A DNA stretch of 64,000 nucleotides from a virus (lineage: Duplodnaviria; Heunggongvirae; Uroviricota; Caudoviricetes): positions 1 through 64,000 of the IMG/VR virus record IMGVR_UViG_3300045971_000195; one strand, given 5' to 3'. The number at the start of each line of letters is the position of its first letter. Position 1 is the stretch's first letter. This document shows positions 40,293-59,463 of the stretch, one piece after another. The notes beneath the pieces are model-generated. The model did no database searches. It was not told where the DNA came from and saw only the letters and a program-made list of their open reading frames with translations. The translations under genes were made by a program, and so were the position numbers.

Positions 40293-40562
40293 TTCTTAAG
40301 TTTGTTGGATACTGCTTTGTTAAGCTATACCACTTCCCTCTCGAACCCCAATTCTAATCTCACCGCGTGTCCCAATAGTTTCTGTGCTCGCATTATACGA
40401 GCTAAAGCTATTAGAGGCGCAATCATGCCACATCGGAGCCACGGGTTTTTGTAAACCCTGGACTAATGTTTGCAATGATATGAGACTATAATACATTTTA
40501 TGTTTTCCGTTTAACTTTCATTTACATACGCTACCTTATTGCAGCGTATGTGTTTATTATAC

Positions 40563-40600
40563 ATTTATTTAGCTTCGTTGTCAACCCCTGTTTGCGTTAT
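40563..40600 (-). promoter_or_regulatory. sigma70-type promoter TTGACA-N17-TATAAA (tandem copy 1)
   Basis: minus-strand reading GTTGACAACGAAGCTAAATAAATGTATAAA. Confidence 0.5.
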
Positions 40601-40742
40601 TTTGAATCTTTTTACAATTCTTTTACTGCTTACAGGAATCTCTAACTTGTATCTATTGTAGCACCATGCTACTAAGTTGTCAACTCTTTTTGTGTTGTAT
40701 TTTACCTACATCATCAAACAGTGCTATCAACTTATGTGTTTA

Positions 40743-40782
40743 TTATACATTTATTTATCCTCGGTGTCAAGCATATGTTGTA
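40743..40782 (-). promoter_or_regulatory. sigma70-type promoter TTGACA-N17-TATAAT (tandem copy 2)
   Basis: minus-strand reading CTTGACACCGAGGATAAATAAATGTATAAT; about 45 bp duplicated from copy 1. Confidence 0.55.
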
Positions 40783-40788
40783 AAATGG

Positions 40789-41724
40789 CTACAAAATAGA
40801 TCGAAAATAAGCAATTGTTTTTTCTAGCCCTTGATCTAGCGCAATTTTTGGCTCCCAATCAAGTAGTTGCTTTGCTTGTGTAATGTCCGGACGTCGTTGT
40901 TTCGGATCGTCTAGTGGTAACGGCATTTGCAGAATTTTACTATCGCTTCCGGTTAAGTTGATAACTTTTTGGGCTAGTTCGAACATTGTAAACTCACCCG
41001 GATTGCCTAAGTTGATCGGACCTGGCATCCTATCTCCGTCTAATGACATATAACGTTGCATGCCATCTAGCAAGTCGTCAACATAGCAGAAGCTTCTTGT
41101 TTGCTGCCCATCTCCGTATATTGTAATGTCTTTACCTTGTAGTGCTTGAACAATAAAATTACTTACAACACGACCGTCCTGCTTTGCCATCCTTGGACCG
41201 TATGTATTAAAGATACGGATGATTCTAACATCAACATCGTGTACACGATAATAATCCATAAACAATGTTTCGGCTGCGCGTTTCCCTTCATCATAGCAGC
41301 TACGGATGCCAATCGGATTCACATTACCCCAATATGTTTCGGGTTGTGGGTGTACTTGCGGGTCTCCGTAAACTTCGCTGGTGGACGCCTGCAAGATCTT
41401 TGCGCCAGTTCTCTTTGCAAGGCCTAACATGTTATATGCACCGATTACACTTGTTTTCATTGTTTGAATTGGATCCCATTGATAGTAGAATGGGCTTGCT
41501 GGGCAGGCAAGATTATAAATTTCATCTACTTCGACATACAACGGAATGCATATGTCTTGTCGGATAACTTCAAAATTTGGGTTACTTAGCAAATGAGCAA
41601 CATTACTTTTACTGCCTGTAAAGTAGTTATCAACGCATAAGACATGGTGGCCTTGTGCTACTAATCTATCGCATAAGTGACTTCCTAAGAAGCCTGCGCC
41701 ACCTGTTACTAGAATCTTTTTCAT
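40789..41724 (-). CDS. UDP-glucuronate decarboxylase (UDP-xylose synthase)-like SDR
   Basis: '[14 protein letters not shown]' Rossmann; 'YDEGKR' catalytic YxxxK; strong UXS-like similarity. Confidence 0.75.
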
Positions 41725-41727
41725 ATG

Positions 41728-42570
41728 TTAGTTCCAAGGATAGATATCAGTTACAAAGGTAACTGCGTTTGGTACAATCTTGTCTTTGTACTTTTCTAGA
41801 TTATTTTGAACAGTTTCTGGAAAGTAGTCATCAATCTGGACATACTCAAATTTTTCAGTTCCATCAAATCCCAGCAAGCCTACTTTGTTTTCAATCATCC
41901 AATCAACATTTAGTTTATCTAAAATTGCAGGAGTATTTGTTTCTGCATGAGCAAAATTCTTAATCTTATTTGCAGCAAACTCAGTATTACCAAAGTAAGT
42001 AAAATGCCAACCTGCATGCGTAATTGCAATAATTTCAGATGTTGGTTTTTGAGTCCACGGAAATGTATATCCACGTTCAGTTTGTGGATCTGTAAATACT
42101 CGACCGCGTGTAACCATAATATTACAATGCAATTGAGAATTTACCATCAAGTAATTTAATTTAAAGTAGGACATCATAATTCCTAGCTTGTATCTATCGT
42201 AGTCGTTAGGGTCGACTTTAATCATATCAATTGCATCTGGTCGAGGAATTTCATCGCAGTCTGCAACAATAACAATGTCGTCAGGTGCTAAATCAGTTAG
42301 TCCACGTTCAATCGCTTTTCTTTGGAACATTTCGTTTTCCCAAGAATTCGCAGAGTTAGGCATATCGTCTACTAATATGTGCCGAATCTTACTTTCGTAT
42401 TTTTTAAACTTATCCCAATTGTCCTTGAGAAAATAAGGTTTGGGGTTATTTTGGTGTGTTCGATTTGCTTCCGCAATTACGAAAAAATCTACACTGTTCC
42501 AAAGCTCCTCAAGTCTGAGTTCCAAAATATCGAACTCGTTGTAAAATGTAAAACAATCAAAAACTCTCAT
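41728..42570 (-). CDS. glycosyltransferase family 17-like
   Basis: N-terminal 'RVFDCFTFYNEFDILELRLEEL…VDFFVIAEANRTHQNNPKPYF' matches the GT17 hallmark. Confidence 0.7.
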   Translation of the reverse strand: MRVFDCFTFYNEFDILELRLEELWNSVDFFVIAEANRTHQNNPKPYFLKDNWDKFKKYESKIRHILVDDMPNSANSWENEMFQRKAIERGLTDLAPDDIVIVADCDEIPRPDAIDMIKVDPNDYDRYKLGIMMSYFKLNYLMVNSQLHCNIMVTRGRVFTDPQTERGYTFPWTQKPTSEIIAITHAGWHFTYFGNTEFAANKIKNFAHAETNTPAILDKLNVDWMIENKVGLLGFDGTEKFEYVQIDDYFPETVQNNLEKYKDKIVPNAVTFVTDIYPWN

Positions 42571-42676
42571 TCTAATTCCCTGTAATATTGTATCTATTTA
42601 ATATAGCATCTCTTCGCTCAAGAGTAAATTGAGTTTGCTATATAGAATTAAATAGTGTAAACTATACACTTAATGG

Positions 42677-43477
42677 ATGCAACCGATGCGTAATTTTTCG
42701 ACGATGGGAACTTTTGGGGATACAATTTACAGTTTGTGTCTAACCAAAATGTTAGGAGGCGGGAATCTTTATGTTAAGCTAAATGCACTTGATGATTTTT
42801 GCAGAAATGTAATAGGTTGGAAAGATGCAGGCCCTGCAAAGGGAAGATACACACAAAGAGATTTCGAAATGATTGAGCCGTTGCTCAATGCTCAAGACTA
42901 TCTGCACACTGTTGCAGTTTGGAATGGCGAACCTGATTGCGAAGATTACATCGATCATTGGAAAATGCATCTTATTAAAGGTTGGCAAGGCAATCAAACA
43001 GAATGCTACGCACTAACAAAAGGCATGGATATTCATAATATTGATGTTAAAAAGAAAGTGCTTTGGGAACCGTGGCTAACTCCGGTTTCTCCAATTGTAG
43101 TTCCTGGCAAGCCAATTGTAGTAAACAGAACTGTTCGGTATCTCTATGGCGCGCCTAGCGACGAGTGGTACCAATGGATTGAAAACGGACTTGGCGAGTA
43201 TGGCATGTTTGTTGGCTCTCCGCAAGAACACGCAGATTTCGAAGAACTATTTAAGACCAAGATTCATTATCAAAAGACAAATGACTTACTTGAACTTGCG
43301 CAAGTTATTCAAGGATGCGAACAGTTTATAGGTAATCAAAGTGTAGGGCTTAGTATTGCTATTGGATTAGGTAAATCCTATAGATGCGAAGTTCGCAAAG
43401 ATTACGAATCAACACAAACACCACATGGTGGGTACGGCGACACATGGTTCCCACGCATTAACGGGTTTTACTTTTAA
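42677..43477 (+). CDS. GT9-like glycosyltransferase, paralog of 51763..52548
   Basis: 'GTFGDTIYSL…' (SxGD start) and 'GNQSVGLSIAIGLG' donor-binding-like segment. Confidence 0.5.
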   Translation: MQPMRNFSTMGTFGDTIYSLCLTKMLGGGNLYVKLNALDDFCRNVIGWKDAGPAKGRYTQRDFEMIEPLLNAQDYLHTVAVWNGEPDCEDYIDHWKMHLIKGWQGNQTECYALTKGMDIHNIDVKKKVLWEPWLTPVSPIVVPGKPIVVNRTVRYLYGAPSDEWYQWIENGLGEYGMFVGSPQEHADFEELFKTKIHYQKTNDLLELAQVIQGCEQFIGNQSVGLSIAIGLGKSYRCEVRKDYESTQTPHGGYGDTWFPRINGFYF

Positions 43478-43485
43478 AGGATACT

Positions 43486-44184
43486 ATGCATGCACTAGTT
43501 GAGCTACACGATAGCAACTATCAACCGTTGGCAGATTTAACGTGGGAACAAAATAAAGTTCCGTACGCTGAAAAACACGGATACAAAACATTTTGCCGTA
43601 TTGGCGGAATGAAACAAGGGTCAACAATCGGATATCAAAAAATTCATTTTATTCGAGAACTAATGTATGACAATCCTGATATCGAGTGGTTTTGGTGGAC
43701 AGGAACCGATGCAATGATTATGAATTTTAATACACGAATTGAGGATAAAGCACTTGATCCGTATCATTATTATGTATCTGCAGATGTAAACGGTATTAAC
43801 GCAGATAGTTTACTGTTTAGAAATACCTCCGAAGGACGATCGTTTATTGAAGAGGTAATTCGTATTGAGCCAGAAGCATCAAAATTCTGGGATTCGGAGC
43901 AACGCGCAATGGCAACAGTTATGGGACTGCCGCCCGCCACCGGAGACGACAAATGGCCGCCCGGCACAAGAATAAGCGATCAGTGGAAAGACATCTGCAA
44001 GATTATGCCGCAACGGTATATGAATGCGTTTAACTATGAACTGTATCATTACACTGATCACAGAGATAGATTAGGTCAAGATGGCAATTGGCAAGTAGGC
44101 GACTGGTTAATCCATTGGCCTGCAACTTCTCTTGAACACCGAATCCGGTTGGCAAGCTTTTACAAAGAACATATAATTAAATAA
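43486..44184 (+). CDS. GT34-like glycosyltransferase (Mnn10/Gma12 family)
   Basis: 'VPYAEKHGY' and 'IEWFWWTGTDAMI' conserved GT34 blocks. Confidence 0.65.
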   Translation: MHALVELHDSNYQPLADLTWEQNKVPYAEKHGYKTFCRIGGMKQGSTIGYQKIHFIRELMYDNPDIEWFWWTGTDAMIMNFNTRIEDKALDPYHYYVSADVNGINADSLLFRNTSEGRSFIEEVIRIEPEASKFWDSEQRAMATVMGLPPATGDDKWPPGTRISDQWKDICKIMPQRYMNAFNYELYHYTDHRDRLGQDGNWQVGDWLIHWPATSLEHRIRLASFYKEHIIK

Positions 44185-45503
44185 TGAAACATATACTAGA
44201 CCAAATTAGAACATACATTGACGAGAAACATGCAGCCAAGATTTGGACTGCTGGAAAAGACTTTGTCAATTACGCGGGCCCGCATTTTAATGCAGACGAA
44301 ATTGTTTCCGCTGCCGAGACACTACTAAACGAATGGTTAGTAATGGGAAATAAGAGCATTAGATTTGAAACACTATTTCCGAAGCAGTTCGGAAAGCAGT
44401 TCGGTGTATTAACCAACTCCGGGAGCTCTGCTAACTTGCTAATGATGGCTGCACTTACAAGTAAGCGCGGGCACAATCTACCTAAGGGCACTAAAGTATT
44501 AATGCCTATTGCAGGCTTCCCCACAACATTAAACCCTACACTGCAAGTTGGATTTACTCCTGTGTTTGTTGATATCGAAGTCGATACACTAAACATTGAC
44601 TTAGCCCACGCAGAACGTATCCTTGCCGAAAATCCAGATATTGAAGTAATCACATTTGCGCACGTTCTCGGCAATCCTCCTAATATGGATAAGGTTATGG
44701 AACTAGTTAACAAGTATGATTTAATATTGCTTGAAGACTGCTGCGATGGCCTTGGTACAACTTACGATAGCAAACCGTTAGGTTCGTTTGGTGAGTTTGC
44801 AAGTTGTAGTTTCTATCCTGCACACCACATGACAATGGGCGAAGGCGGGTTTGTTGCAGTAAACAATAAAACACAAGAAGACATCGTTCGTGCATTTCGT
44901 GAATGGGGTCGTGGATGCTATTGCGTTGGACCAGAAGCTAATAAGCTAAAGTGTGGAACTTGCAAGTGCAGATTTAGTGAATGGATTCCTGAGATGCCGG
45001 GTGTCATATTTGATCACAAATATGTGTATGACGAAATCGGTTACAATCTAAAACCTATTGAAATTCAAAGTGCAATGGGGCTTGAACAAATTAAGAAACT
45101 TCCAGAGATACATACTCTGCGTCAACGCAATTATAGTTTGCTATTTGCAATCTATGAGAAATACGAACAATTCTTCCACATCCCTCGGCCACAAGATAAG
45201 GCAGATGTTAGTTGGTTTGCATTTCCATTAACAATTCGTAAGGATGCTCCGTTTACACGAATGGAAATTGTAGATTTCTTAGAAGAAAACTTAATACAAA
45301 CTCGCCCGTACTTTGCAGGTAACATCATGTTACAACCTGCTTACAGTCACTTGATGAACCCAGCTGATGCCCGCGATAATTTTCCAGTTGCTACATTCAC
45401 TATGAAGAATACTTTCTTCCACGGATGCAGCCCTGTTATTACTCCCGAGCAAATTGCATACATGGGTGAGAAGATTGATAAATTTATGAGTTCATATCTA
45501 TGA
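44184..45503 (+). CDS. DegT/DnrJ/EryC1-type PLP-dependent sugar aminotransferase/dehydratase
   Basis: 439 aa; aminotransferase class V-like fold region 'SGSSANLLMMAAL'. Confidence 0.65.
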   Translation: MKHILDQIRTYIDEKHAAKIWTAGKDFVNYAGPHFNADEIVSAAETLLNEWLVMGNKSIRFETLFPKQFGKQFGVLTNSGSSANLLMMAALTSKRGHNLPKGTKVLMPIAGFPTTLNPTLQVGFTPVFVDIEVDTLNIDLAHAERILAENPDIEVITFAHVLGNPPNMDKVMELVNKYDLILLEDCCDGLGTTYDSKPLGSFGEFASCSFYPAHHMTMGEGGFVAVNNKTQEDIVRAFREWGRGCYCVGPEANKLKCGTCKCRFSEWIPEMPGVIFDHKYVYDEIGYNLKPIEIQSAMGLEQIKKLPEIHTLRQRNYSLLFAIYEKYEQFFHIPRPQDKADVSWFAFPLTIRKDAPFTRMEIVDFLEENLIQTRPYFAGNIMLQPAYSHLMNPADARDNFPVATFTMKNTFFHGCSPVITPEQIAYMGEKIDKFMSSYL

Positions 45504-46123
45504 TTACTGCACAAGAACTAATTGATTTTGAAACCGAGATAGGTGATCTCTTTAATTCTGCAAAGATAAAAGCCCCTATCCATTTATATGCAAATAACGA
45601 AGAAAATGTTATGCGGGTATTTGAAAAAGTTAATTCTGAAAAAGATTGGGTCTGCTGCACTTGGCGTAATCACTATCAAGCACTTCTTAAGGGTATACCT
45701 AAGGAAGTGCTTAGAGAAAAGATTTTACAAGGTAAGAGCATGGTCATGAACTTACCAGAGTATAAATTTATTTGCTCAAGTATCGTCGGTGGTATTCCAA
45801 GTATTGCTACTGGAATTGCACTTGCTGCTAAGTTAAAAGGTGGTAGCGAACATGTATGGTGTTGGACAGGTGATATGTCTGCAGAGACCGGCGCATGGAC
45901 AGAAGCATACAAGTATGCTGTTGCACAAAATTTACCAATCACATTTATAGTAGAAGATAACGAATTGAGTGTGTTGTCTCCTACTCACGAACTGTGGGGT
46001 AGTAACAAATGGTATCTTCCAGAGCAAGGAGTTAATTGGTATGAAAGTCCCAATTTAATTTATTACAAATACAAAAACGGAAAGTATCCGCATGCGGGTG
46101 CAGGTTTACGGGTACAATTCTAA
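45500..46123 (+). CDS. transketolase-like TPP enzyme, N-terminal subunit
   Basis: 'GGIPSIATGIALAAK…WCWTGDMSAETGAWTEA' TPP-binding-like; paired with downstream C-terminal subunit. Confidence 0.55.
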   Translation: MITAQELIDFETEIGDLFNSAKIKAPIHLYANNEENVMRVFEKVNSEKDWVCCTWRNHYQALLKGIPKEVLREKILQGKSMVMNLPEYKFICSSIVGGIPSIATGIALAAKLKGGSEHVWCWTGDMSAETGAWTEAYKYAVAQNLPITFIVEDNELSVLSPTHELWGSNKWYLPEQGVNWYESPNLIYYKYKNGKYPHAGAGLRVQF

Positions 46124-46665
46124 TGGCAACTACAAAAGATTATAATGATGCACTAAAGGAAGCAATGAACTGGCTTGCTGCTCAAGAGAAGACGATCATT
46201 CTCGGGCAAGCAGTTTGTTATGCAGGTACCGGATGCTATGATAGCCTAACTGAAGTTCCTGCAAATAAGAAGATGGAATTCCCTGTCGCAGAAAACTTTC
46301 AAATTGGTGTTAGCACAGGGCTTGCATTAAATGGATTTATTCCGGTGTCTGTTGTCCCAAGATGGAACTTTTTACTATGTGCTACCGATCAAATTGTTAA
46401 TCACTTAGATAAAATGAAGGCTATGAGTAGTGGAGCATGTACTCCTAATGTTATCATTCGAGTTGCTGTGGGATCAGAAAAGCCTGTTGATCCACAAGAT
46501 CAACATAAAGGCAATTTCGCCCAAGCATTTAGATTAATGTGTAAGAACATAGATATTGTAGAATTGCATTATGTTAATGATATCCTACCTGCATACAAAG
46601 CAGCGTACAATAGAACCGACGGTAAGAGCACCATCTTAGTAGAATTTCCGGACTACGGTAAATGA
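46123..46665 (+). CDS. transketolase-like, C-terminal (pyrimidine-binding) subunit
   Basis: 'EFPVAENFQIGVSTGLALNGFIPV' pyrimidine-binding-domain-like; start overlaps upstream stop. Confidence 0.55.
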   Translation: MATTKDYNDALKEAMNWLAAQEKTIILGQAVCYAGTGCYDSLTEVPANKKMEFPVAENFQIGVSTGLALNGFIPVSVVPRWNFLLCATDQIVNHLDKMKAMSSGACTPNVIIRVAVGSEKPVDPQDQHKGNFAQAFRLMCKNIDIVELHYVNDILPAYKAAYNRTDGKSTILVEFPDYGK

Positions 46666-47465
46666 AGGTTGTCATATTAGGTGCAGGCGGATTTTTAGGA
46701 AGTAACATTCTTAAAAATCTGCTGATTAAAGGATTTGATGTCGTTCCGGTATTAAGACAAGATCTTGATCTTACAAACTTTAACAACGTCTCACGATTTC
46801 TTCATGCAACTAAACCAGACATAGTGATAAACTGTGTCATCCCAGGCGGAAGAAACAAAATTGATAATCTCGATCAAAGTGATTTCGACGAACATTTAAA
46901 AATATTTTTAAATTTTTATAATCTATCACACTATTTTAAAAAATTCTTTAGTATCGGTTCGGGCGCAGAGTTTGATAGGTCCACTGAAATATTTGATGCA
47001 CACGAAACAAATATTCTAACTTGTGATCCTATTGATATATACGGAAAACTCAAGAACACTACTGCACGTATTTCTATGCAGGATCCTAAATTTTATACAT
47101 TAAGAATATTCGGGTGTTTTGATAAAACAGAATCAGCTAATAGGCTGTTTAGTAAAATTCAAAATTCTAACGAAATAACAATTGACGATCGATGTTTTGA
47201 TTTTATTAGTGTTAAAGATTTTTGCACGGTGCTACGCCACTTCATAAATACTGATACGATTTACAGAGATGTTAACTGTGTATATAACGATAAGCGAAAA
47301 CTTAGCGACATCGCTAATCTGTTTATAAAAACACACGATTTACATACTCGAATAATAATCAACACAACACAAAATCTTAGCTATTCAGGTAATGGCGGTA
47401 GATTAGAAATAATGAACTTGCCCCTAGATGGGCTCGTTAAAAGTATCAAGGAATATAATGAGTAA
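46662..47465 (+). CDS. NAD(P)-dependent sugar reductase/epimerase-like SDR
   Basis: 'VVILGAGGFLGSNI' Rossmann motif. Confidence 0.5.
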   Translation: MKVVILGAGGFLGSNILKNLLIKGFDVVPVLRQDLDLTNFNNVSRFLHATKPDIVINCVIPGGRNKIDNLDQSDFDEHLKIFLNFYNLSHYFKKFFSIGSGAEFDRSTEIFDAHETNILTCDPIDIYGKLKNTTARISMQDPKFYTLRIFGCFDKTESANRLFSKIQNSNEITIDDRCFDFISVKDFCTVLRHFINTDTIYRDVNCVYNDKRKLSDIANLFIKTHDLHTRIIINTTQNLSYSGNGGRLEIMNLPLDGLVKSIKEYNE

Positions 47466-48405
47466 GAAAATTGTTTATGTAACTGGCTGTTTAGGGTTTA
47501 TTGGATTTCATGTAACTCAAGCATGTTTAAATAGAGGTTGGTATGTTAAAGGTATCGATAAGATTACATATGCTGCAAATGTGAATTTATTACCAGAACT
47601 AGAAAAGTACGAAAACTTTTCGTTTGAACAAATCGATATAAATGATATGGATACACTTTATGAATGTGACTACATCATTAATACTGCCGCAGAGACACAT
47701 GTAGATAACTCTATTGCATCATCTGATGTATTTGTTAAGAGTAACATTGACGGTGTACATAATTTATTGAAACTTGTAAAACAAAAGTACAAGTTTAAAA
47801 TGCCGACATTACTACACTTTAGCACAGACGAAGTCTACGGAGATATTGTAGACGGCGCCCATACAGAAACTGACTTACTAAAACCAAGTAATCCGTATTC
47901 AGCAACTAAAGCAGCCGCAGATATGTTAGTGTTAGCATGGGCACGAACATATGGACTTCCGTTTGTTATTGTACGTCCTACTAACAATTACGGCATTGGA
48001 CAATATACTGAAAAGTTTATTCCACATACTGTTAAGCACCTTAATTTAGGTAAGGCGGCGCCGTTACATGATATGGGGCTACCTCGTCGTACTTGGTTAC
48101 ATGCAGGTGATACTGCTAATGCTGTACTTAAAATCATCGATTCAGATGTTAAGAACGAGATTTTTAATATTGCAGGTAACTACGAAGAATCAAACATTAT
48201 TGTTGCTAACAAGATTATTACACAAATGCAATTACCCGGCGACTCCATGCAATATTTAGATCTAAGTGTAAAACGCCCGGGGCAAGATGTTCGGTATGCT
48301 ATTAATGATAATAAGTTGCAAGCATTGGGATGGAGAGCAGAAGCAGACTTTGACACAGTGCTTAAAGATGTTGTTAAGTATTACACCAAGAATTTCATTT
48401 GGTAA
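47428..48405 (+). CDS. dTDP-glucose 4,6-dehydratase-like (RmlB family); likely true start about 47458
   Basis: 'IVYVTGCLGFIGFH' Rossmann; 'YSATKAAAD' YxxxK. Confidence 0.7.
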   Translation: MGSLKVSRNIMSKKIVYVTGCLGFIGFHVTQACLNRGWYVKGIDKITYAANVNLLPELEKYENFSFEQIDINDMDTLYECDYIINTAAETHVDNSIASSDVFVKSNIDGVHNLLKLVKQKYKFKMPTLLHFSTDEVYGDIVDGAHTETDLLKPSNPYSATKAAADMLVLAWARTYGLPFVIVRPTNNYGIGQYTEKFIPHTVKHLNLGKAAPLHDMGLPRRTWLHAGDTANAVLKIIDSDVKNEIFNIAGNYEESNIIVANKIITQMQLPGDSMQYLDLSVKRPGQDVRYAINDNKLQALGWRAEADFDTVLKDVVKYYTKNFIW

Positions 48406-48408
48406 CAT

Positions 48409-48936
48409 ATGATTGATGTAACTGAACTTAGTATTCCCGGACTTAAATTAATTAACTTAGCACGACATTCAGACACCCGAGGATGGCTAAATGAAATTTG
48501 GAGAGACTCTTGGAGCGACCAAATTGGACTAAAAGATCCGTTTATCCAGGATATGCTTTCATGGAATGATCAATCTTATACATTAAGGGGCCTGCACGGC
48601 TTATCGGTTGATCAATATAAGCTAGTGTCTGTTGTTAACGGAAGCGTATTTGATGTGGTAGTTGATGCAAGACCTAATAGCCCTGCTTTCAAGTCACATA
48701 TATCAGTTATGCTTTCTGTTAATACGCCGTCAGTATTGTTAGTACCACCCGGATGTTTTCACGGTTACTTAACATTAGAACAAAACACAGCAGTTGCTTA
48801 TAAAGTTAGTCACTACCACTCCGCTGGAATTGATAGGGGAATTAATTGGGCTGATCCCACTTTAAATATCAATTGGCCATTACACGGTAATACTCCTATT
48901 ATTAGTGATAGAGACTTAAATCATCCAAACTTATGA
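48409..48936 (+). CDS. dTDP-4-dehydrorhamnose 3,5-epimerase-like (RmlC cupin)
   Basis: 175 aa; 'FIQDMLSWND…RGLHGL' matches RmlC His/Tyr region. Confidence 0.65.
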   Translation: MIDVTELSIPGLKLINLARHSDTRGWLNEIWRDSWSDQIGLKDPFIQDMLSWNDQSYTLRGLHGLSVDQYKLVSVVNGSVFDVVVDARPNSPAFKSHISVMLSVNTPSVLLVPPGCFHGYLTLEQNTAVAYKVSHYHSAGIDRGINWADPTLNINWPLHGNTPIISDRDLNHPNL

Positions 48937-49676
48937 ATATATTAATCACTGGTGGGAATGGCTATCTTGCCAGACACCTTGCATCTCATTTATCTAAAGC
49001 GCATAATGTATATGCGCCCGGTAGAGATCAGCTTGATTGTATGGATGCAGTTGCCGTAGAAGAATGTTTCAATATCCATAATTTTGATACAGTAATACAT
49101 ACTGCATTAACTGGGAGAGAAGTTTTATTTTCTCAGGAAAGAAAATATTGGGACGATGCTATAACGATGTGGAACAATGTGCGAAATCATAAAACTAAGT
49201 TTAAACAACTTATACATTTTGGTAGTGCATATGATATGTTTGATAATCCTTATGGTCAAGGAAAGAAAGCGATTGCAGAGAGTTGTGAAGTAACTGATAA
49301 CTTTTATAATTTAAGGTTATATGGTAATTTTCACTATACTGAAAAAGATACTCGATTTTTTAAAAAGATGTATAGTGAATCACATTTCGTAATTTCAGAA
49401 AATAAACAATTTGATTATTTTCATCTCGAAGATATATTTCCTATTGTAGATTTTGTAATTAACGAACACCCGGCTATTCGTGCTTTTGATGTTGTTTATA
49501 AAGAGAAGCGTACACTAATATCGCAAGCAATGGAGTTTTGCGAGTTAAACGAAATTAAACCTATATTAGAGGTTCTAAAAGAAGGAACTGATATGATAGG
49601 CAACAGTACTATACTCGATTCGTTTAACTTAAATCTCCAAGGGCTCGCAACAGGATTTACAAAATATAAATTATGA
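48933..49676 (+). CDS. NAD-dependent epimerase/reductase-like protein
   Basis: 'ILITGGNGYLARHL' Rossmann-like. Confidence 0.45.
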   Translation: MNILITGGNGYLARHLASHLSKAHNVYAPGRDQLDCMDAVAVEECFNIHNFDTVIHTALTGREVLFSQERKYWDDAITMWNNVRNHKTKFKQLIHFGSAYDMFDNPYGQGKKAIAESCEVTDNFYNLRLYGNFHYTEKDTRFFKKMYSESHFVISENKQFDYFHLEDIFPIVDFVINEHPAIRAFDVVYKEKRTLISQAMEFCELNEIKPILEVLKEGTDMIGNSTILDSFNLNLQGLATGFTKYKL

Positions 49677-50392
49677 AAATTAGAATTTCGTATCACATAG
49701 TTGCACAATACGGTTGGGAGGAGATTACAACTAACTGTATCAACAAAATGAAAAGATCTGGATTGTGGGATGCTGCAACAGAGATTCATATGATGTGTCA
49801 TTACCAGCCATCATTATTTTCAGAATTCACAAAAACTCTTAGTCCTAACGACGATCGTATTTACTGGCACTTGTTTACAAATAGTGTAGTAAAGAGAGGT
49901 GAAAGTTACACAAATAATAGACTAAAAGATATTTGCGATAACGATACTGAAGATTGGAATGTGTTAAGACTGCATAATAAAAGTTCTAACTATACACATC
50001 ATCCTGATCAAGTGCTTGCTTATAAATGGCGAGACCTTATGGAGTATTGGAATATCGAACGATGGGACCTGTTGTGTTCAAAACTTAATCAAGGATTTGA
50101 TGTAGCAGGTAACGAGTGGATGGACGAGCCGTGGCCACATTTTAGCGGTAATGTTTGGTGGGCAAAGAGTAGCTATATTAGAAAGTTACCAGCATTACCA
50201 TTGCCCCTAGATATTAATACTCCTGCAACAATAGATTTAAAAGGACATCCTCCAAGACACGAAGCAGAAGCATGGATGGGAATTGCATCCCCAAAAGCGT
50301 GGTCAGCACTCCCTGAACTAACTACTTGGGGTCACCCAAAAATAGGCGATGGTTGGGATAATCCTAACATCCCGTTTAACGATAAAGAATAA
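49673..50392 (+). CDS. hypothetical Trp-rich protein (239 aa) within glycan cluster
   Basis: ORF, overlapping stops/starts. Confidence 0.45.
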   Translation: MKIRISYHIVAQYGWEEITTNCINKMKRSGLWDAATEIHMMCHYQPSLFSEFTKTLSPNDDRIYWHLFTNSVVKRGESYTNNRLKDICDNDTEDWNVLRLHNKSSNYTHHPDQVLAYKWRDLMEYWNIERWDLLCSKLNQGFDVAGNEWMDEPWPHFSGNVWWAKSSYIRKLPALPLPLDINTPATIDLKGHPPRHEAEAWMGIASPKAWSALPELTTWGHPKIGDGWDNPNIPFNDKE

Positions 50393-51050
50393 TATGAAAA
50401 TTGGAATGGTACACCTATATACTGCAAACTACAAATCTATGGCAGAAATTACGTTACCGGGAAAAGAACAGTATGCAAAAAGACACGGATACACGTTGTT
50501 TAACAAAGATGACAAGTTTATTCCGAATGTTCACATCGGCACACAAAAATGTTACTATATACTCGAGTTAATGGAACAACATCCCGAAATAGAATGGTTC
50601 TGGCATGCCGGTACAGATTGCCTAATTACAAATCATAATATACCATTAGAAAGTTTGATAGATCCCAATCCAACCATACATTTTATTGTATGTAAGGACG
50701 ATCACGGTATTAATGCTGATGTGTTTTTTATTCGTAATTCTCAAGAAGGTAAAGATTATCTTCAACATTTAACAACGCCACATCCTGCATCAGGTACTGA
50801 GCAAGGACATATGTGGGACGACGAACATAATCCAGTGTGGCGTGCAATTACAACATATCTGCCTCAAGTGTATATGAATGCATATGATTTAAAACACTAT
50901 CCTCATAAACGAGGACTCGACGTATTTGGATCTAGGGGAAATTGGAATGTAGGGGATTTCCTTTTACATGCTGTTTCTGGTGCAGTTGCAGATGCATATC
51001 CCTGGAAACTGAACATTCTTAACGAACATATAAACGAAGTACAAAAATGA
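50349..51050 (+). CDS. GT34-like glycosyltransferase, paralog of 43486..44184 (likely start about 50394)
   Basis: 'YAKRHGY' and 'IEWFWHAGTDCLI'. Confidence 0.65.
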   Translation: MVGIILTSRLTIKNNMKIGMVHLYTANYKSMAEITLPGKEQYAKRHGYTLFNKDDKFIPNVHIGTQKCYYILELMEQHPEIEWFWHAGTDCLITNHNIPLESLIDPNPTIHFIVCKDDHGINADVFFIRNSQEGKDYLQHLTTPHPASGTEQGHMWDDEHNPVWRAITTYLPQVYMNAYDLKHYPHKRGLDVFGSRGNWNVGDFLLHAVSGAVADAYPWKLNILNEHINEVQK

Positions 51051-51766
51051 TAAACGATAATTTAATTAAAACTTGCTCATGCAGCAACAACAGTTCATTC
51101 CTTGCGAGCCGAGAAAATGATATAGACTTGTTAGTCTGCACTCATTGCGGCACCCCACATCAATATCTACCAGGTTGGACTCAAGACAAAGTAATCGAGT
51201 ATTATAAAAATCTGTATCATACAGATGCGCAGCAAGCAATTGGACATCAAGCATACAAGGATAGATATGAGCACGATCTTAAAATTGCAAATATTCGATT
51301 AAATTCATATACACATTTAACTCCAGGAATGATCGGGTTGGACATCGGTAGTTCTAATAGTGCGTTTGTACATGCTGCTCGCGCAAGAGGAATTACTTGT
51401 ATAGGTATTGAACCTGGTAAAGATATCGGAGATGATGCTACTACTATTAGACAGCCTATCCAAGAAGTATCATTACCTATTAGCAGTCAAGACTTTATTA
51501 CCATGCACGACAGTTTAGAACATATGGTAGATATCCGTGCTATTGTTGGAAAGATTCAGTCACTACTAAAAATCGGCGGGAACTTAATTGTTGATATCCC
51601 AGACTACTTTGTACCTGAAGGGTTGCATCACTGGCGCCCTGTTCAACATTTATGGTATTGGAACGAGCAGCAAATGATCAACTTACTAAAAGAATTCGGC
51701 CTTACTACTAATAAAGTAATAAGACCGATTCCTGGAAAGATTGTGTTTTACGCTACGTTAGATTAA
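51047..51766 (+). CDS. SAM-dependent methyltransferase with N-terminal zinc ribbon
   Basis: 'CSCSNN…CTHCGTPH' then 'GLDIGSSNSAF' motif I. Confidence 0.55.
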   Translation: MINDNLIKTCSCSNNSSFLASRENDIDLLVCTHCGTPHQYLPGWTQDKVIEYYKNLYHTDAQQAIGHQAYKDRYEHDLKIANIRLNSYTHLTPGMIGLDIGSSNSAFVHAARARGITCIGIEPGKDIGDDATTIRQPIQEVSLPISSQDFITMHDSLEHMVDIRAIVGKIQSLLKIGGNLIVDIPDYFVPEGLHHWRPVQHLWYWNEQQMINLLKEFGLTTNKVIRPIPGKIVFYATLD

Positions 51767-52548
51767 AAGTATTGAATGTTAATTCTAAAAGGATAGTAAA
51801 TTTCATTATTATCCAGCGTTTCGTTTTTTCTAGTTTCAAACCAACTAGTTTTGCCTAACGCAATAGCAATACCGCAAGGGCTGCTTTGATTACCGATAAA
51901 CAATTCTGATCCTGCTATTACGCGAGTCATTTGCAACATATCTTCTGTTTTGTAGTGTGGCACTGTTACTTTGAACAAATCTTCAAACCACGCATGTTCG
52001 TGATCTAATCCGATATATACACAGCGATTTGCAAGTCCAGAATTAAACCAATTCTGCCAAGTTGGATTTAGCGTCGGAGCTCCATCTAAGTAATGCGTAT
52101 TACGTGCAATTACTATAGGGCGATTCGGAACTTTAATAGGATTTTCACACTCTAGCCACGATTGTTGCTGTAGTTGTTCCTTATATAAGTTTGCATCAAT
52201 TCCTTGACTCGATGCATATTGATTTGCAAAGTTGCGTGGTTTAAGTCCACCTGCTTGATGATGTCTGCATACTTCTTCAAATTCGTTAGTTACTTGCTCA
52301 CCGTTCCATTTTTGGAAACTATGAATGTAGCTTTGCGATTTGATTAATGGTTCTAGGACATTGTAGTCTTTCTCAGTCATTCTACCACTATGTATACCAG
52401 CGCCCGGCCATCCTAGTTTTTCTAGGACCATATTATCCATATTATTCATTTTTAGGTAGAAGTCGCCGCCGCCTAAAATTTTTACAATTACTAGACTAGA
52501 TACAACGTCACCTAATGTACCCGAATGTGTAAACGATCTCTGTGTCAT
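51763..52548 (-). CDS. GT9-like glycosyltransferase, paralog of 42677..43477
   Basis: 'HSGTLGDVVSSLVIVK'; 'GNQSSPCGIAIALGK'. Confidence 0.5.
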   Translation of the reverse strand: MTQRSFTHSGTLGDVVSSLVIVKILGGGDFYLKMNNMDNMVLEKLGWPGAGIHSGRMTEKDYNVLEPLIKSQSYIHSFQKWNGEQVTNEFEEVCRHHQAGGLKPRNFANQYASSQGIDANLYKEQLQQQSWLECENPIKVPNRPIVIARNTHYLDGAPTLNPTWQNWFNSGLANRCVYIGLDHEHAWFEDLFKVTVPHYKTEDMLQMTRVIAGSELFIGNQSSPCGIAIALGKTSWFETRKNETLDNNEIYYPFRINIQYF

Positions 52549-52602: not shown

Positions 52603-53319
52603 TTATAGTTTTTCTGCTATAAACTCTGCTTCAGGGATTCTAGAATGGGTATCTTTGCTACCTAATACTACTACAATACGGCGTCCTACATCAGTATCGA
52701 GCATCATTACAATACATCCTCCGCTTGCGGCAATGTAGCCAGTCTTGCTTACCATAAAAGTATGTCGCTTGCCAATAATGGGATTGGTGTTATTAAACAC
52801 AAACCATTTTTTGCGTATATTAATTTTAATTTGTGGAGTTTTAGCTGCTTTCTGTATTTCAGAATACGATTGTGCTTCTACAACTAGTTTAACTAAATCT
52901 TCAGCAGTGCTTACATTAAACACACTTAATCCAGTTGCTTCGTGATAACGAGTGTTTAACATCCCTAACTTCAATGCTTTTTCGTTCATTGCCTTTACGC
53001 ACTCGTATTCGCCTTTTGGGTAATTACTGCATAGTGCCCTTGCAGACTCGTTGTCCGACTTTACCAATGCAAGTTGTATTAATTCTGCTCGGGTAAACTT
53101 TGTTACACGTTCATCTAACTTTTGATGTGCATCTAACACAACCATTACAGTCATTAGCTTAGTAATACTTGCGATTGCACGAACTTCTTCTATATTTTCA
53201 CTTTGAATTATAGTGCCAGTCCCGTCTGCTACTAACCAGCTTTTAGCTGTAATAGAAGACCAACCGGCATTTGCTGTTGAGTGTAGCAGCAATAATACTA
53301 GCAGAAATTTTCTGATCAT
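52603..53319 (-). CDS. D-alanyl-D-alanine carboxypeptidase (S11 PBP5/6-like)
   Basis: signal peptide; 'SITKLMT' SxxK; 238 aa. Confidence 0.6.
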   Translation of the reverse strand: MIRKFLLVLLLLHSTANAGWSSITAKSWLVADGTGTIIQSENIEEVRAIASITKLMTVMVVLDAHQKLDERVTKFTRAELIQLALVKSDNESARALCSNYPKGEYECVKAMNEKALKLGMLNTRYHEATGLSVFNVSTAEDLVKLVVEAQSYSEIQKAAKTPQIKINIRKKWFVFNNTNPIIGKRHTFMVSKTGYIAASGGCIVMMLDTDVGRRIVVVLGSKDTHSRIPEAEFIAEKL

Positions 53320-53633
53320 AAATCTGATGCATTTGGAAATATTAGTTGAGCTTGTTCACCTGAGCCTAAAATACAAGCTAACCCTTTTTCGTTATACTGA
53401 ATAATTGTCCAAGATTTATTAGTTCTGTTTACTGTAATAATAAATTTTGTATCTAATTGGATGCCATTCCAGAACGGAACTTCTTGATATTTTTCACCAG
53501 TTACTTCTTCGATGATTTGTTTCAACCCCCCGCATACCACAGGTACTTCTGATCGAAATAATTGAGACTGAGATTGGGCGTGGGCTATAAGGGTGGTTAG
53601 CCCGAATAGGACCGCCACTGCTAATTTACGCAT
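53316..53633 (-). CDS. small secreted protein (105 aa)
   Basis: signal peptide 'MRKLAVAVLFGLTTLIAHAQS'. Confidence 0.45.
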   Translation of the reverse strand: MRKLAVAVLFGLTTLIAHAQSQSQLFRSEVPVVCGGLKQIIEEVTGEKYQEVPFWNGIQLDTKFIITVNRTNKSWTIIQYNEKGLACILGSGEQAQLIFPNASDL

Positions 53634-53658
53634 AGTGGCTCTCCTTTTTTAGTATTTA

Positions 53659-55326
53659 TTAACTTGACGAAGGCAATGTTCCGATTGTCGGCTGGCTAGT
53701 TTTAAAGGCAGGCTTAGGTGCAATCTTCGGAGGCATTGTTTTTATGCCTGCATTCTTTTTAATAGTTGCTAATTCATCGGGCGGCTGAACCGCAGCCTGA
53801 GCAGGTTGTTGAACAGCAGGTTGTGCAGGAACCGATGCTTGTTTTTGTTCAATTTTTTCCCAATCTGCTAATTCTTTAAGTAAACTTCCCATTTCGATAA
53901 TATTACGAACAGCAGATGCTTGCATATAAGATCTATATTTTACTAATAGTTCTTTATGCGACCCCATTTCTTTCTTAACTTTTGTTGTAACAGGAAAGCC
54001 GTATATTTCAATAAAATGCATTTTTTCACTATTACCGCGTTTTACAACTAACTGATAATCGTTTAGTGCTTCTTTTAGAGGTGCTCCAAATGTTAATTCA
54101 CTAAATGCTTTCTTCGATGACGGTGTAAGAATAACCATTTCAACATTTTCTTCGTTGCGGGTTGCATGATGTAAAATACCGTCGTATACTTGTTTAACAA
54201 GCCCAATTTGATCAGTTTTTGCCATCCTAGCTAACGAACGTTCTATTTCATCATATGCTACTGTAAATCCGTTGAAATAATTTTCATCACGGACAGCTTC
54301 AACATCTGCTTTCTTCTCAGCTCGTGTCATTTTTTCTGTACTAGGAGCAGCGAACTTTTTCTGTACAGCAGGACTTAAACTCATGCCAACACTTTGTTGA
54401 AAGAATCCGTTTAGCGCATCAAATGCATATCCGCTAACCTGTCCGAACTGGCCGACTCGCCCTGCTTTAATGCTCAGTAGGTTAAAACTTTGTTTACCCT
54501 GTTCATTTGCAACTGATATTTTTAAATCAACTTTTGTAATTTTTTGTTGTTCTGCGTTACCGCCGTCACTTAACACATCTACTAAATTTTCTGTTGGATC
54601 ATCAGATGCTTTGCTCACAGCTAATTGAACACGTTTTGATGTGTTTACATAATCTACAGCACTAGCAATATGTTGTGTAATGCCTTTTATTGTGTCTGAT
54701 GGAATTTTATAGTCTGCTACAGACTTCTTCCCCATTCCTAAGTAAGCAAAGAATGCTTTCTTATCGATAAATGGAACACTTGCACTAAATGTGATGTTGT
54801 CTTTGCCGGAGTGTGTTTGTACAGTGCCCTTACCTTCTGCTAACCTTTTAGCCATTCCAATTACATCATCTTTACTAACAGGCTGTCCTTGCTTTTCGAA
54901 CTTTGTAGTAACTGCACATCCTAAAACTAATTCTGCAATGTTTCCTAAATTTGGTTTTAACTCGCCTTTTATCTTTTCATCTTTAAAAATTTGATTTAGC
55001 TTAACATTATTATAAATTTCGCCTTCAACTGGATTGCCATCGTCATCTAACCGTTGAACACTAAAAGTAATTGACTGCAACATTTTAGGATCTTTATGTG
55101 CAATAGCAGCTAGAAATTCGTTTGCAACTTTTTGTCCATTTTGTATAATACCATCGAAATTTTCACTATCAATACTAAACGAGTAAACATTATTTTCAGG
55201 CAACCCTTCAATAAACGGTTTCCAATAGTAATCTTTTACCCAGTCGTTTGATGATCCGCTGTACTTCATCAATCCTTCGACAATCGTGCTTTTAAATGGT
55301 GTTAGTAAAAATTCAGTTGCTCTCAT
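53659..55326 (-). CDS. hypothetical protein (555 aa) with Pro/Ala/Gln-rich C-terminal tail
   Basis: long ORF; C-terminal 'QPAVQQPAQAAVQPP'. Confidence 0.55.
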   Translation of the reverse strand: MRATEFLLTPFKSTIVEGLMKYSGSSNDWVKDYYWKPFIEGLPENNVYSFSIDSENFDGIIQNGQKVANEFLAAIAHKDPKMLQSITFSVQRLDDDGNPVEGEIYNNVKLNQIFKDEKIKGELKPNLGNIAELVLGCAVTTKFEKQGQPVSKDDVIGMAKRLAEGKGTVQTHSGKDNITFSASVPFIDKKAFFAYLGMGKKSVADYKIPSDTIKGITQHIASAVDYVNTSKRVQLAVSKASDDPTENLVDVLSDGGNAEQQKITKVDLKISVANEQGKQSFNLLSIKAGRVGQFGQVSGYAFDALNGFFQQSVGMSLSPAVQKKFAAPSTEKMTRAEKKADVEAVRDENYFNGFTVAYDEIERSLARMAKTDQIGLVKQVYDGILHHATRNEENVEMVILTPSSKKAFSELTFGAPLKEALNDYQLVVKRGNSEKMHFIEIYGFPVTTKVKKEMGSHKELLVKYRSYMQASAVRNIIEMGSLLKELADWEKIEQKQASVPAQPAVQQPAQAAVQPPDELATIKKNAGIKTMPPKIAPKPAFKTSQPTIGTLPSSS

Positions 55327-55334
55327 AGTGTTAT

Positions 55335-56006
55335 TTACCCTATTTCAGGAAACAGCACTTCTTCGATAAAATCCTTAACTAACGCTTTACTTAACCCTAA
55401 ACTTTCCATTACACGAGGGCTATGTGGATTTTGCTTCTGATAGTGGCAATAGCGATTCTGTGCCATATGAAAATCAGCACCACTTTGTTGTGTTAACCCT
55501 ACATTAGATAGGTAGTAATCTAAGTTATCGAGTCCTGCTTGAACAAACTGATTTAGCTCATCTACTTTATCTACCGCGCCCACTGCAATCATTGCAGGAC
55601 TAAAGATTGCCGCCGCCCAGTCAGGCAATTCTCGTGGCTTTTTCCAGTTTAATTCTGTTACACGTTGATCAAACCATTGCATCATGTAATGATTTGGGTC
55701 ACCTGCATTACTAAAATCGTGGAATCCGCCACTCATCCTGTTTGGCCCACACACCATATCAAATCCGAATATAGGACTATTATCGTTCGTATGCGGGAAA
55801 ATGCATACATGCATCATCCATAAGTTTTTAGTTTGTCGAGCATCTACAATATCAATGTGTGCTCTACGGTATGCCATACTATAGTACACATGATTAGCCC
55901 AAGGAAACTTGCTAGCCGCAGGCTCAGTTACATGCTCTCCAGTGGATTTGAATCGCTTGATAATTTCTTCAGAGCAAGCAATTGCTTTTTCAAATATAAT
56001 GCTCAT
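55335..56006 (-). CDS. ferredoxin-dependent bilin reductase (PcyA/PebS/PcyX family)
   Basis: 'WKKPRELPDWAAAIFS' and 'QNRYCHYQKQNPHSPRVMESLG' parallel PcyA blocks. Confidence 0.75.
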   Translation of the reverse strand: MSIIFEKAIACSEEIIKRFKSTGEHVTEPAASKFPWANHVYYSMAYRRAHIDIVDARQTKNLWMMHVCIFPHTNDNSPIFGFDMVCGPNRMSGGFHDFSNAGDPNHYMMQWFDQRVTELNWKKPRELPDWAAAIFSPAMIAVGAVDKVDELNQFVQAGLDNLDYYLSNVGLTQQSGADFHMAQNRYCHYQKQNPHSPRVMESLGLSKALVKDFIEEVLFPEIG

Positions 56007-56880: not shown

Positions 56881-56904
56881 AGTGGGGGTCTCCCCCCACT
56901 TATT

Positions 56905-57405: not shown

Positions 57406-57418
57406 TCTACTATTTTAT

Positions 57419-57910: not shown

Positions 57911-57917
57911 TTTGTTC

Positions 57918-59317: not shown

Positions 59318-59463
59318 TTAATATTAGGAACCGGAACAACTGACATTGCCTCTACTATCTCAAGACACTTTAGTTTATCAATATCGTATTCAACACACAT
59401 CTTGATTAAATTTATTGCTGTCATACACGGCAACGGATCTAAATCTACTATCATTTCCCCCAC
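59260..59463 (-). CDS. possible degenerate array member (67 aa)
   Basis: 'KYLTFFILKQK' C-terminus; overlaps neighbour substantially. Confidence 0.3.
   Translation of the reverse strand: MGEMIVDLDPLPCMTAINLIKMCVEYDIDKLKCLEIVEAMSVVPVPNIKWELDIPEKYLTFFILKQK

Follow-up and report, generated by a model that had tools for sequence, protein, structure and literature searches.

A candidate pathway for a C-branched 3,6-dideoxy sugar in a soluble glycan-biosynthesis island of an apparent T4-like jumbo phage

What would a tailed phage build with 16 closely packed genes for sugar-nucleotide synthesis, glycosyl transfer, and methylation, and where would it place the product? Here, we report a computational analysis of such an island at positions 40789-52548 of a 64,000-nucleotide stretch of viral DNA (the window; Caudoviricetes, positions 1 to 64,000 of IMG/VR record IMGVR_UViG_3300045971_000195). 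On balance, we favor reading it as a self-contained set of soluble enzymes that would produce as many as three activated sugars and link them as a short, methylated glycan, with a virion protein as the best guess for the acceptor. Each enzyme was given a family or fold, catalytic residues were read from alignments, and gene linkage was followed across relatives. An earlier note, made from the letters of the window, had described a glycan-biosynthesis island with deoxysugar enzymes, one GT17, two GT34, and two GT9-like transferases; the family and fold assignments bear out this general picture, and the open reading frames (ORFs) sit exactly where that note had placed them.

The gene that sets the chemistry had been taken for a DegT-type aminotransferase and the product for an amino-deoxysugar, and neither assignment held. 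The protein is instead an RfbH/E1-type 3-dehydrase, which strips the C-3 hydroxyl and adds no amine. It reaches the RfbH equivalog NF011936 (NCBIfam; 428.4 bits, cut-off 423), with only 153 bits for PseC, next in rank and the highest-scoring aminotransferase model, and it matches the Yersinia E1 structure 3bcx at 5e-92. Its SFYPAHH motif aligns with wild-type E1, which has His at the position of the Schiff-base Lys (the Lys variant, 3bb8, is a mutant), and is invariant in 11 phage orthologs, as are the four cysteines of Cys187-X57-Cys245-X-Cys247-X12-Cys260. The unusual E1 [2Fe-2S] motif, which we take to be C-X57-C-X1-C-X7-C, has the same layout except that the last spacer of the phage enzyme is 5 residues longer. 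The aminotransferase reading was rejected on the catalytic His in place of Lys and the RfbH threshold reached; together with the retained Fe-S cysteines, these therefore argue for a 3,6-dideoxy sugar, not an amino sugar.

Two genes abut the 3-dehydrase, the first starting inside its stop codon and overlapping the second by one base. They had been called a split transketolase of the kind that adds two-carbon side chains; a two-gene thiamine pair is what we find, and by Pfam and NCBIfam it is not a transketolase proper but resembles the alpha and beta subunits of pyruvate dehydrogenase (PDH) E1. The alpha subunit scores 47.8 bits on PF00676 (E1_dh; cut-off, 22) over profile positions 6-164 of 300 only, and the beta subunit 27.7 bits on PF02779 (Transket_pyr; cut-off, 27) over positions 4-166 of 174, being a bare pyrimidine-binding domain without Transketolase_C. 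In the alpha metal/diphosphate motif, GDM...EDN, the alignment of phage orthologs shows D125 without exception and N154 almost without exception; the third Gly of GDG is Met in the jumbo-phage orthologs, in contrast to GDG in both cyanophage homologs of the same alignment. The cofactor-activating Glu is kept in the beta motif FPVAENF, aligned with human E1 beta.

Since PDH E1 alpha and beta are its nearest sequence families, the pair could serve central metabolism (pyruvate/acetoin- or transketolase-type, feeding precursors) rather than sugar branching, in which case the RfbH product would go on to unbranched abequose, paratose, or ascarylose. Cyanophages lend this some credit: a fused alpha-beta form (PHROG 34187) lies among heptose-pathway genes, in heptose/"LPS" islands that lack RfbH, in S-SM2 and P-TIM68, and in RB11-B and like cyanomyoviruses the genes that accompany RfbH are GT17, RmlC, and SDRs, a thiamine enzyme being absent. 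The RmlC-like enzyme and two SDRs of the window would, moreover, suffice for an ascarylose-like product. However, the pair scores only 73 bits on the PDH E1 alpha model (cut-off, 394) and 46.8 bits on the E1 beta model (cut-off, 321), its domains are truncated, and it has no E2 or E3 partner. Linkage to RfbH, described below, also counts against this alternative, which we regard as quite improbable. Ordinary PDH E1 unrelated to sugar pathways is likewise not what the low PDH scores and the cellular homologs in sugar loci indicate. Most likely, the thiamine pair installs a two-carbon branch, as its truncation, its distance from the PDH cut-offs, its position against the 3-dehydrase, and its replacement in relatives suggest.

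The alpha subunit has 1,915 metagenome homologs, and the 120 listed are 77-88% identical, several of them on contigs of 248-352 kb. Among 185,579 species genomes scanned, 80 cellular loci had an alpha subunit 37-53% identical, the beta subunit alongside in 76, in SAR11, bacteria of the candidate phyla radiation (CPR), DPANN archaea, Chloroflexota, Verrucomicrobiota, and Prochlorococcus. Within 8 kb of these 80 cellular pairs were an extended SDR (51 loci), a DegT-family gene (22 loci), and an RmlC-like gene (20 loci), rates that by a rough estimate, made without a matched control, are far above those of a random 16-kb locus. Judged by sequence, such pairs (about 200 plus 180 amino acids [aa]), here termed mini-E1, look like an uncharacterized enzyme family of streamlined genomes, most often placed among genes for nucleotide sugars.

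The features of the island are as follows (NDP, nucleoside diphosphate; PMP, pyridoxamine 5'-phosphate).

40789-41724, minus strand: UXS, UDP-glucuronate decarboxylase (phmmer, 2.8e-121 to human UXS1; Pfam Epimerase/GDP_Man_Dehyd)
41728-42570, minus strand: GT17 glycosyltransferase (PF04724, 3e-26), co-oriented with UXS, 3 nt apart
42571-42676, no strand: divergent intergenic region of 106 nt, with inverted GCTATAT..TAAATAG copies before both flanking genes
42677-43477, plus strand: GT9a, compact GT9-like GT-B glycosyltransferase of 266 aa (called start, 42686)
43486-44184, plus strand: GT34a glycosyltransferase (PF05637, 1.4e-21)
44184-45503, plus strand: RfbH/E1-type PMP-dependent NDP-4-keto-6-deoxyhexose 3-dehydrase of 439 aa (NF011936)
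45500-46123, plus strand: minimal E1-alpha-like thiamine-diphosphate subunit of 207 aa (PF00676, 1.3e-12)
46123-46665, plus strand: minimal E1-beta-like pyrimidine-binding subunit of 180 aa (PF02779, 2.4e-06)
46662-47465, plus strand: SDR1, RmlD-like (Pfam Epimerase, RmlD_sub_bind; catalytic motif YGKLK)
47428-48405, plus strand: RmlB-like NDP-glucose 4,6-dehydratase (TIGR01181, 9e-86)
48409-48936, plus strand: RmlC-like 3,5- (or 5-) epimerase (PF00908, 3.2e-48)
48933-49676, plus strand: SDR2, second RmlD-like SDR (Pfam Epimerase, RmlD_sub_bind; YGQGK motif)
49673-50392, plus strand: DUF8361 protein with a GT-A-like fold, putative sixth glycosyltransferase
50349-51050, plus strand: GT34b, second GT34 glycosyltransferase (PF05637, 8.3e-19; called start, 50406)
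51047-51766, plus strand: class-I methyltransferase dependent on S-adenosylmethionine, with an N-terminal Cys4 zinc-ribbon-like segment (PF13489, 3.6e-13)
51763-52548, minus strand: GT9b, GT9-like paralog of GT9a (39% identity), converging on the methyltransferase gene

For the linkage analysis, 80 IMG/VR loci were retrieved with a GT9a profile and four long contigs via exact-protein look-ups (loci are given as L numbers; E-values for related loci are relative to the candidate sets). Loci whose GT9a ortholog is 45% or more identical share a recurring core of GT9a, GT34a, RfbH (69-84%), a thiamine enzyme, an SDR, and the RmlB-like dehydratase. In all 26 loci with at least 2 kb beyond RfbH, a thiamine enzyme lies 0-2.8 kb from the RfbH ortholog (at least 69% identity); these 26 include the window, its near-identical Logan copy L001, and several near-duplicates, leaving about 17 distinct loci. 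The thiamine enzyme itself comes in three architectures: the mini-E1 pair (window, L011, L088, and L089), a mini transketolase/DXS-like pair of 202 plus 159 aa (L015, L018, L019, and L029), and, in all other loci, a single acetolactate synthase (ALS; YerE)-like chain of 576-592 aa that scores well under the ALS cut-offs. That three types of thiamine enzyme are swapped at a fixed place beside RfbH is the strongest argument that the window pair branches the RfbH product, and it is difficult to see why such non-homologous or highly divergent forms should keep a constant linkage if their function were not tied to that product.

Three further enzymes accompany the ALS type in L005, L006, L008, and L014 (12850-15359 of L005 and 6358-8885 of L006): an HpcH/HpaI aldolase, a sugar-phosphate cyclase related to AroB (TIGR04425, 395 bits, cut-off 400), and a FabG-like reductase. 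Their presence suggests that the keto acid donating the branch is longer or otherwise unusual. Elsewhere, in an uncultured 642-kb phage (LR756502.1, 445108-450872), about 4 kb separates a GT17 gene (28% identity) from one of RfbH type (38%), and the RfbH-GT17 association therefore reaches beyond T4-like phages.

The other nucleotide-sugar enzymes were found much as they had first been read. UXS gives a full-length match to human UXS1 (2.8e-121; structures 4gll/2b69 over residues 2-309), to which it is about 60% identical by inspection of the alignment, with GalE as the next family (9e-39); its orthologs (76-85% identity) adjoin GT17 or GT9-like genes in L033, L036, and L042. The best PDB matches of the RmlB-like 4,6-dehydratase are all dTDP-glucose 4,6-dehydratases (5e-64), its score on TIGR01181 is 288 bits (under the cut-off of 365), and its orthologs (62-74%) occur in nearly all RfbH-bearing relatives with enough flank, with none in L024, which is cut 2.2 kb downstream of RfbH. 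The RmlC-like epimerase, which PF00908 confirms, scores 137 bits on TIGR01221 (cut-off, 156); among close relatives its ortholog occurs in L028 only, and L028 has one of SDR2 as well. The two further SDRs of the earlier note proved to be the RmlD-like SDR1 and SDR2, which are paralogs. In relatives of the E1 and ALS types (L005, L006, L021, L028, L088, and L089), the gene right after the thiamine enzyme is an SDR1 ortholog, and SDR1 is proposed as the side-chain (or C-4) ketoreductase, in the role of YerF/Pau7. For SDR2, we propose the 4-ketoreductase of a 6-deoxy-L- or 3,6-dideoxy-L-hexose branch; acting with RmlB, the RmlC-like enzyme and SDR2 could yield an L-rhamnose-like sugar and, acting with RfbH, an ascarylose-like 3,6-dideoxy-L-hexose.

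Among the transferases, GT17 had been correctly named: over positions 74-282 of the 348-position PF04724 profile, it scores 92.8 bits (cut-off, 26). Its sequence carries DCDE, PDB sequence and profile searches gave nothing for it, and its relatives occur in only 7 of 50,697 GenBank phage records, mostly cyanomyoviruses. The two paralogous GT34 enzymes likewise stand, at 77.8 (GT34a) and 68.7 (GT34b) bits on PF05637 (cut-off, 23), with a best stretch of about 75 of 238 profile positions and 33% mutual identity. GT34a, which directly follows GT9a in related loci too, aligns to the Arabidopsis xyloglucan xylosyltransferases XXT1/2/5 across EWxWWMDSDA, where it reads EWFWWTGTDA. For the two GT9-like enzymes, paralogy (39% identity, E = 7e-61) and fold were upheld, and membership in the GT9 sequence family was not: neither protein matched Pfam, NCBIfam, or PDB sequences, with no PF01075 hit at E ≤ 0.01, and PDB sequence and profile searches returned nothing for GT9a. 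The GT9a structure model (pLDDT, 92.9) has a GT-B fold nearest to GT9 structures, a fold group that includes the protein-glycosylating enzyme TibC. GT9a is the most conserved transferase of the island and belongs to a compact GT9-like family of 2,348 cluster representatives that has no Pfam model, with some members fused to GT2, GT4, GT9, or DUF5672 domains; structural relatives of this domain occur in uncultured tailed phages, Klosneuvirus, and Pithovirus. Neither GT9a nor GT34a has a relative in the 50,697 GenBank phage records, and PHROGs held nothing for GT9a, GT9b, GT17, GT34a, GT34b, or DUF8361. The DUF8361 protein (49673-50392), to which no function had previously been assigned and which has an ortholog in L021, is probably a sixth, putative transferase with a GT-A-like fold. 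The predicted methyltransferase was recovered (PF13489, 3.6e-13), and its pairing with GT9b recurs in L030 and L042 (methyltransferase orthologs, 45-58% identity; GT9b orthologs, 51-60%).

From these enzymes, we propose a pathway of three branches, every step of which would be cytoplasmic. In the first, formed by the conserved core, the RmlB-like dehydratase would convert NDP-glucose to NDP-4-keto-6-deoxyglucose, from which the 3-dehydrase (PMP, Fe-S) would take off the C-3 hydroxyl, using electrons from a host reductase or one encoded distally in the phage genome, to give NDP-4-keto-3,6-dideoxyglucose. Mini-E1 alpha/beta would then decarboxylate pyruvate and place the acetyl unit onto C-4, and SDR1 would reduce the branch to a yersiniose-like 4-C-(1-hydroxyethyl)-3,6-dideoxyhexose. 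In the second branch, UXS would turn host UDP-glucuronate into UDP-xylose; in the third, the RmlC-like epimerase acting with SDR2 would yield a rhamnose- or ascarylose-like hexose of L configuration, either 6-deoxy or 3,6-dideoxy. GT9a, GT9b, GT34a, GT34b, GT17, and probably DUF8361 would transfer the sugars, and the methyltransferase would cap the product. The order of steps, pyruvate as the donor, the nucleotide carrier, the pairing of transferases with sugars, and the acceptor are our deductions from sequence, fold, and gene linkage.

Several observations weigh against this proposal. The E1-like subunits are heavily truncated and read GDM instead of GDG, and their likeness to the actinomycete pairs described below is one of description, not sequence. 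Both GT34 proteins read GTD where XXT1/2/5 have DSD, so that the first Asp of DxD is Gly. The window contains no sugar-1-phosphate nucleotidyltransferase (an NTP_transferase-HAD fusion occurs in the relatives L005, L011, and L088), no UDP-glucose dehydrogenase, no E3-type reductase, and no ferredoxin, and no ferredoxin- or FNR-like ORF in it could supply a dedicated E3 (AscD/DdhD) partner for the 3-dehydrase; precursors and electrons would thus come from the host or from elsewhere in the phage genome. An E3 partner is not obligatory, as SpnQ-type 3-dehydrases run on general cellular reductases. The nucleotide carrier is ambiguous, enterobacterial RfbH being CDP-specific and the dehydratase looking dTDP-type. 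Finally, all functions were read from sequence, fold, and linkage.

Where the glycan would go is the second question. None of the 16 island proteins has a 19-residue hydrophobic segment typical of a membrane helix, and no priming transferase, flippase, polymerase, or ligase was found in the window or in the Pfam-annotated neighborhoods of relatives. A purely soluble pathway fits phage proteins, an inner-face lipopolysaccharide (LPS) core, or DNA as the acceptor. Of these, we put one or more of the phage's own virion proteins first, tentatively and at somewhat less than even confidence, because GT9a is highly conserved within the clade, because TibC-type GT9 enzymes glycosylate proteins, and because giant viruses and mycobacteriophages offer precedents. 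The genes around the island are tRNA and auxiliary genes, not those of a structural module, and GT9 enzymes classically act on the LPS core; both points weigh against a virion-protein target and therefore make it a minority-plus guess.

The same sugar chemistry could instead be directed at the host envelope, either by rebuilding the LPS or lipooligosaccharide core at the cytoplasmic face of the inner membrane or by loading a host lipid carrier that host flippases would export, so that the altered surface of the infected cell would block superinfection, prevent progeny from sticking to debris, or evade grazers. The best structural matches of GT9a are indeed the LPS heptosyltransferases WaaC and WaaF, and a gene for an apparently secreted D-Ala-D-Ala endopeptidase abuts the island. 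Yersiniose-type sugars are bacterial O-antigen components (PMC4753412), and in large cyanomyoviruses the usual reading of comparable islands is that they modify the cell surface (PMC12801897). However, the lack of a priming phosphoglycosyltransferase, flippase, polymerase, and ligase noted above tells against an envelope target, the phage appears lytic and T4-like, and GT9a is 60-84% conserved across many phages, so that their hosts would need a common acceptor. On this evidence, we consider a host-envelope acceptor rather unlikely, next in rank after virion proteins.

Because the phage is T4-like and all island enzymes are cytoplasmic, the glycan might alternatively sit on phage DNA, as hypermodified hydroxymethyl-pyrimidines that shield the genome from host nucleases, as in T-even phages and related ones; GT-B enzymes glucosylate T4 DNA. 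But the scanned ORFs of the window (all but about ten of those reaching 120 aa, and none shorter) include no hydroxymethylase or base-modification gene, and five or six transferases and three sugar branches far exceed known DNA glycosylation systems. We know of no DNA-modifying members of GT17 or GT34, and a DNA acceptor seems to us very improbable.

If virion proteins are the target, the full proposal would be that T4-like phages of 250-350 kb, forming a globally abundant but uncultured clade, decorate their own virions with a glycan that includes an eight-carbon, C-branched 3,6-dideoxy sugar, made by an as yet uncharacterized minimal heterodimeric thiamine carboligase (387 aa in total), a combination that we hold to be doubtful as a whole. 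If true, it would be a tailed-phage counterpart of giant-virus self-glycosylation and would give functions both to a new family of compact GT9-like transferases and to the large orphan mini-E1 family, which is widespread in SAR11, CPR bacteria, and DPANN archaea. C-branched 3,6-dideoxy sugars are rare immunodominant sugars of O-antigens and of antibiotics, and a viral pathway for a C-branched dideoxy sugar would take virus-encoded glycobiology well past simple glucosylation. The three interchangeable thiamine enzymes beside one dehydrase form a natural swap experiment that points to the function of the still unannotated mini-E1 family, and a testable setting is gained for DUF8361 and the compact GT9-like family. 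Hundreds of metagenome contigs carry the core genes, and whatever the glycan decorates is therefore ecologically common. The enzymes could also serve as biocatalysts for tertiary-alcohol formation.

The island stands out within its surroundings by strand. Neighboring genes overlap or are separated by a few bases, and ten ORFs (42677-51766) run on the plus strand of a jumbo-phage window that is otherwise minus-strand, UXS and GT17 diverging from this run and GT9b converging on it. GC skew and AT skew reverse sign over 42-52 kb in line with the strand switch, which, with the ORF coordinates, agrees with the mostly plus-strand block first described. In the 106-nt divergent region, the plus-strand GCTATAT..TAAATAG copy is unique within the window, no strong sigma70 match was found, and the inverted pair is, from its sequence, a possible shared promoter or operator. 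Counting T4 late promoters (TATAAATA) gave no usable signal on the timing of island expression.

The same island genes were called independently on two Logan contigs and one 76-kb JGI contig, and syntenic relatives are contigs of 248-352 kb in which the island lies beside the same hemO, bilin reductase, and HSP20 genes. Bacterial contamination or misassembly was rejected on this gene order and synteny. A recent horizontal gain of the whole island is unsupported, its GC content being window-like and its core conserved in the clade; only the RmlC-SDR2-DUF8361 segment is sporadic among relatives. T4-type markers in the window include an RNA ligase, a Ro60-like RNA-binding protein, endonuclease VII, and a Gp23-like fragment, and the source appears to be an uncultured T4-like jumbo phage with a genome of roughly 250-350 kb. 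Megablast of the island and blastn of the neighboring region 53600-61500 found no match among GenBank phages, and the phage therefore has no close sequenced relative. The "moraphage" jumbo lineage was set aside as a separate non-T4 group.

Elsewhere in the window, 44 tRNA genes of most anticodon families (12374-39623, minus strand) are interspersed with HNH/zinc-ribbon endonuclease-like ORFs. Also on the minus strand are genes for a ClpP protease (937-1545), the Ro60-like RNA-binding protein (22936-24354), and an HSP20 chaperone (56905-57405). A 163-aa ORF (30413-30904, minus strand) contains a BLUF blue-light flavin adenine dinucleotide sensor domain (PF04940, 8.6e-24) and, since the genome also has genes for making bilins, might act as a light sensor carried by the phage. 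Heme oxygenase (PF01126) and a PcyA/PcyX-like ferredoxin-dependent bilin reductase are encoded at 55335-56551 (minus strand) and at 14539-15724 of L088, a cassette known from uncultured aquatic phages (PMC11480375), which directly follows the glycan island in a 352-kb relative. Immediately downstream of the island (52603-53633, minus strand) are a PbpG-like D-Ala-D-Ala endopeptidase and a 105-aa ORF, both with hydrophobic, signal-peptide-like N-termini by inspection. On its other side, the 540-nt gap between UXS and endonuclease VII holds three consensus sigma70 promoters (TTGACA-17-TATAAT; 40556-40770, minus strand), two matching at 12/12 positions and one at 11/12; an exact 22-nt direct repeat at 40550 and 40736 contains the -10 hexamers of both perfect promoters. 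This trio probably drives early transcription toward the tRNA region. The promoters hint at a host with a canonical sigma70; they and the affinities of the genes to those of cyanophages give no more than hints of the host's identity.

How, then, does the island compare with known systems? In yersiniose synthesis, YerE, an ALS-like single chain, puts the two-carbon unit of pyruvate on CDP-4-keto-3,6-dideoxyglucose and YerF reduces the branch, and longer branches (the erwiniose/caryophyllose scheme) use aldolase-made keto acids (PMC9306805). The proposed phage route shares with that of yersiniose A in Yersinia pseudotuberculosis (DdhB, E1/RfbH plus E3, YerE, and YerF) the 4,6-dehydration, PMP/Fe-S 3-deoxygenation, thiamine-dependent C-4 branching, and ketoreduction, and related phages have an ALS-type enzyme like YerE, in some cases alongside an HpcH aldolase that recalls the erwiniose scheme (YerE likened by description, not by sequence). 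It differs in that the window has a two-subunit mini-E1 instead of single-chain YerE, a dehydratase that looks dTDP-type rather than CDP-type, no nearby E3 reductase or cytidylyltransferase, and no Wzx/Wzy machinery, and in that the carrier is a phage. AviB1/AviB2 of avilamycin and Pau11/Pau12 of paulomycin are corresponding actinomycete E1 alpha/beta pairs, proposed to attach the C-4 acetyl branch (PMC4753412). These, too, are two-gene E1-like thiamine enzymes within a deoxysugar cluster, whereas the phage subunits span about half of the E1_dh profile and lack Transketolase_C, and the acceptor would be a 3,6-dideoxy sugar in the phage versus a 2,6-dideoxy sugar or a pentose in the antibiotic pathways.

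Closer in genome type, large T4-like cyanomyoviruses have long sugar-nucleotide islands with up to 13 glycosyltransferases, whose function has usually been guessed to be host-surface or DNA modification (PMC12801897). Those of P-SSM2, S-SM2, P-TIM68, S-SCSM1, S-B05, and RB11-B resemble the island in their nucleotide-sugar SDRs, RmlC, methyltransferases, many small soluble glycosyltransferases, and position near tRNA genes. RB11-B, S-B05, S-B43, and S-H68 have GT17 beside a 40%-identical RfbH-type gene and no thiamine enzyme, and S-SM2 and P-TIM68 have the fused mini-E1 and no RfbH; RfbH and a thiamine enzyme occur together in none of the sequenced phages (50,697 GenBank records), and protein identities are only 25-40%. 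The glycan had been thought "not obviously described," which is true of RfbH joined to mini-E1 but not of the island as such, and the literature searched yielded no report linking yersiniose-type sugars or RfbH plus thiamine branching to phages or viruses. The island is a variation, with a specific chemistry, on the glycan islands known from large aquatic T4-like phages.

The precedents for a virion acceptor come from other viruses. Chloroviruses (PBCV-1 A064R, A111/114R) encode cytoplasmic glycosyltransferases and methyltransferases that make a capsid glycan with xylose, rhamnose, and methylated sugars, and mycobacteriophage virion glycosylation was reportedly described by Freeman et al. in 2023. 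The enzymes of these systems are not orthologous to those of the island, which lies outside the structural module and for which a virion acceptor is only predicted. What they have in common with it is a set of cytoplasmic, virus-encoded glycosyltransferases and methyltransferases that build a glycan without host membrane machinery, and with giant viruses the island also shares the compact GT9-like domain.

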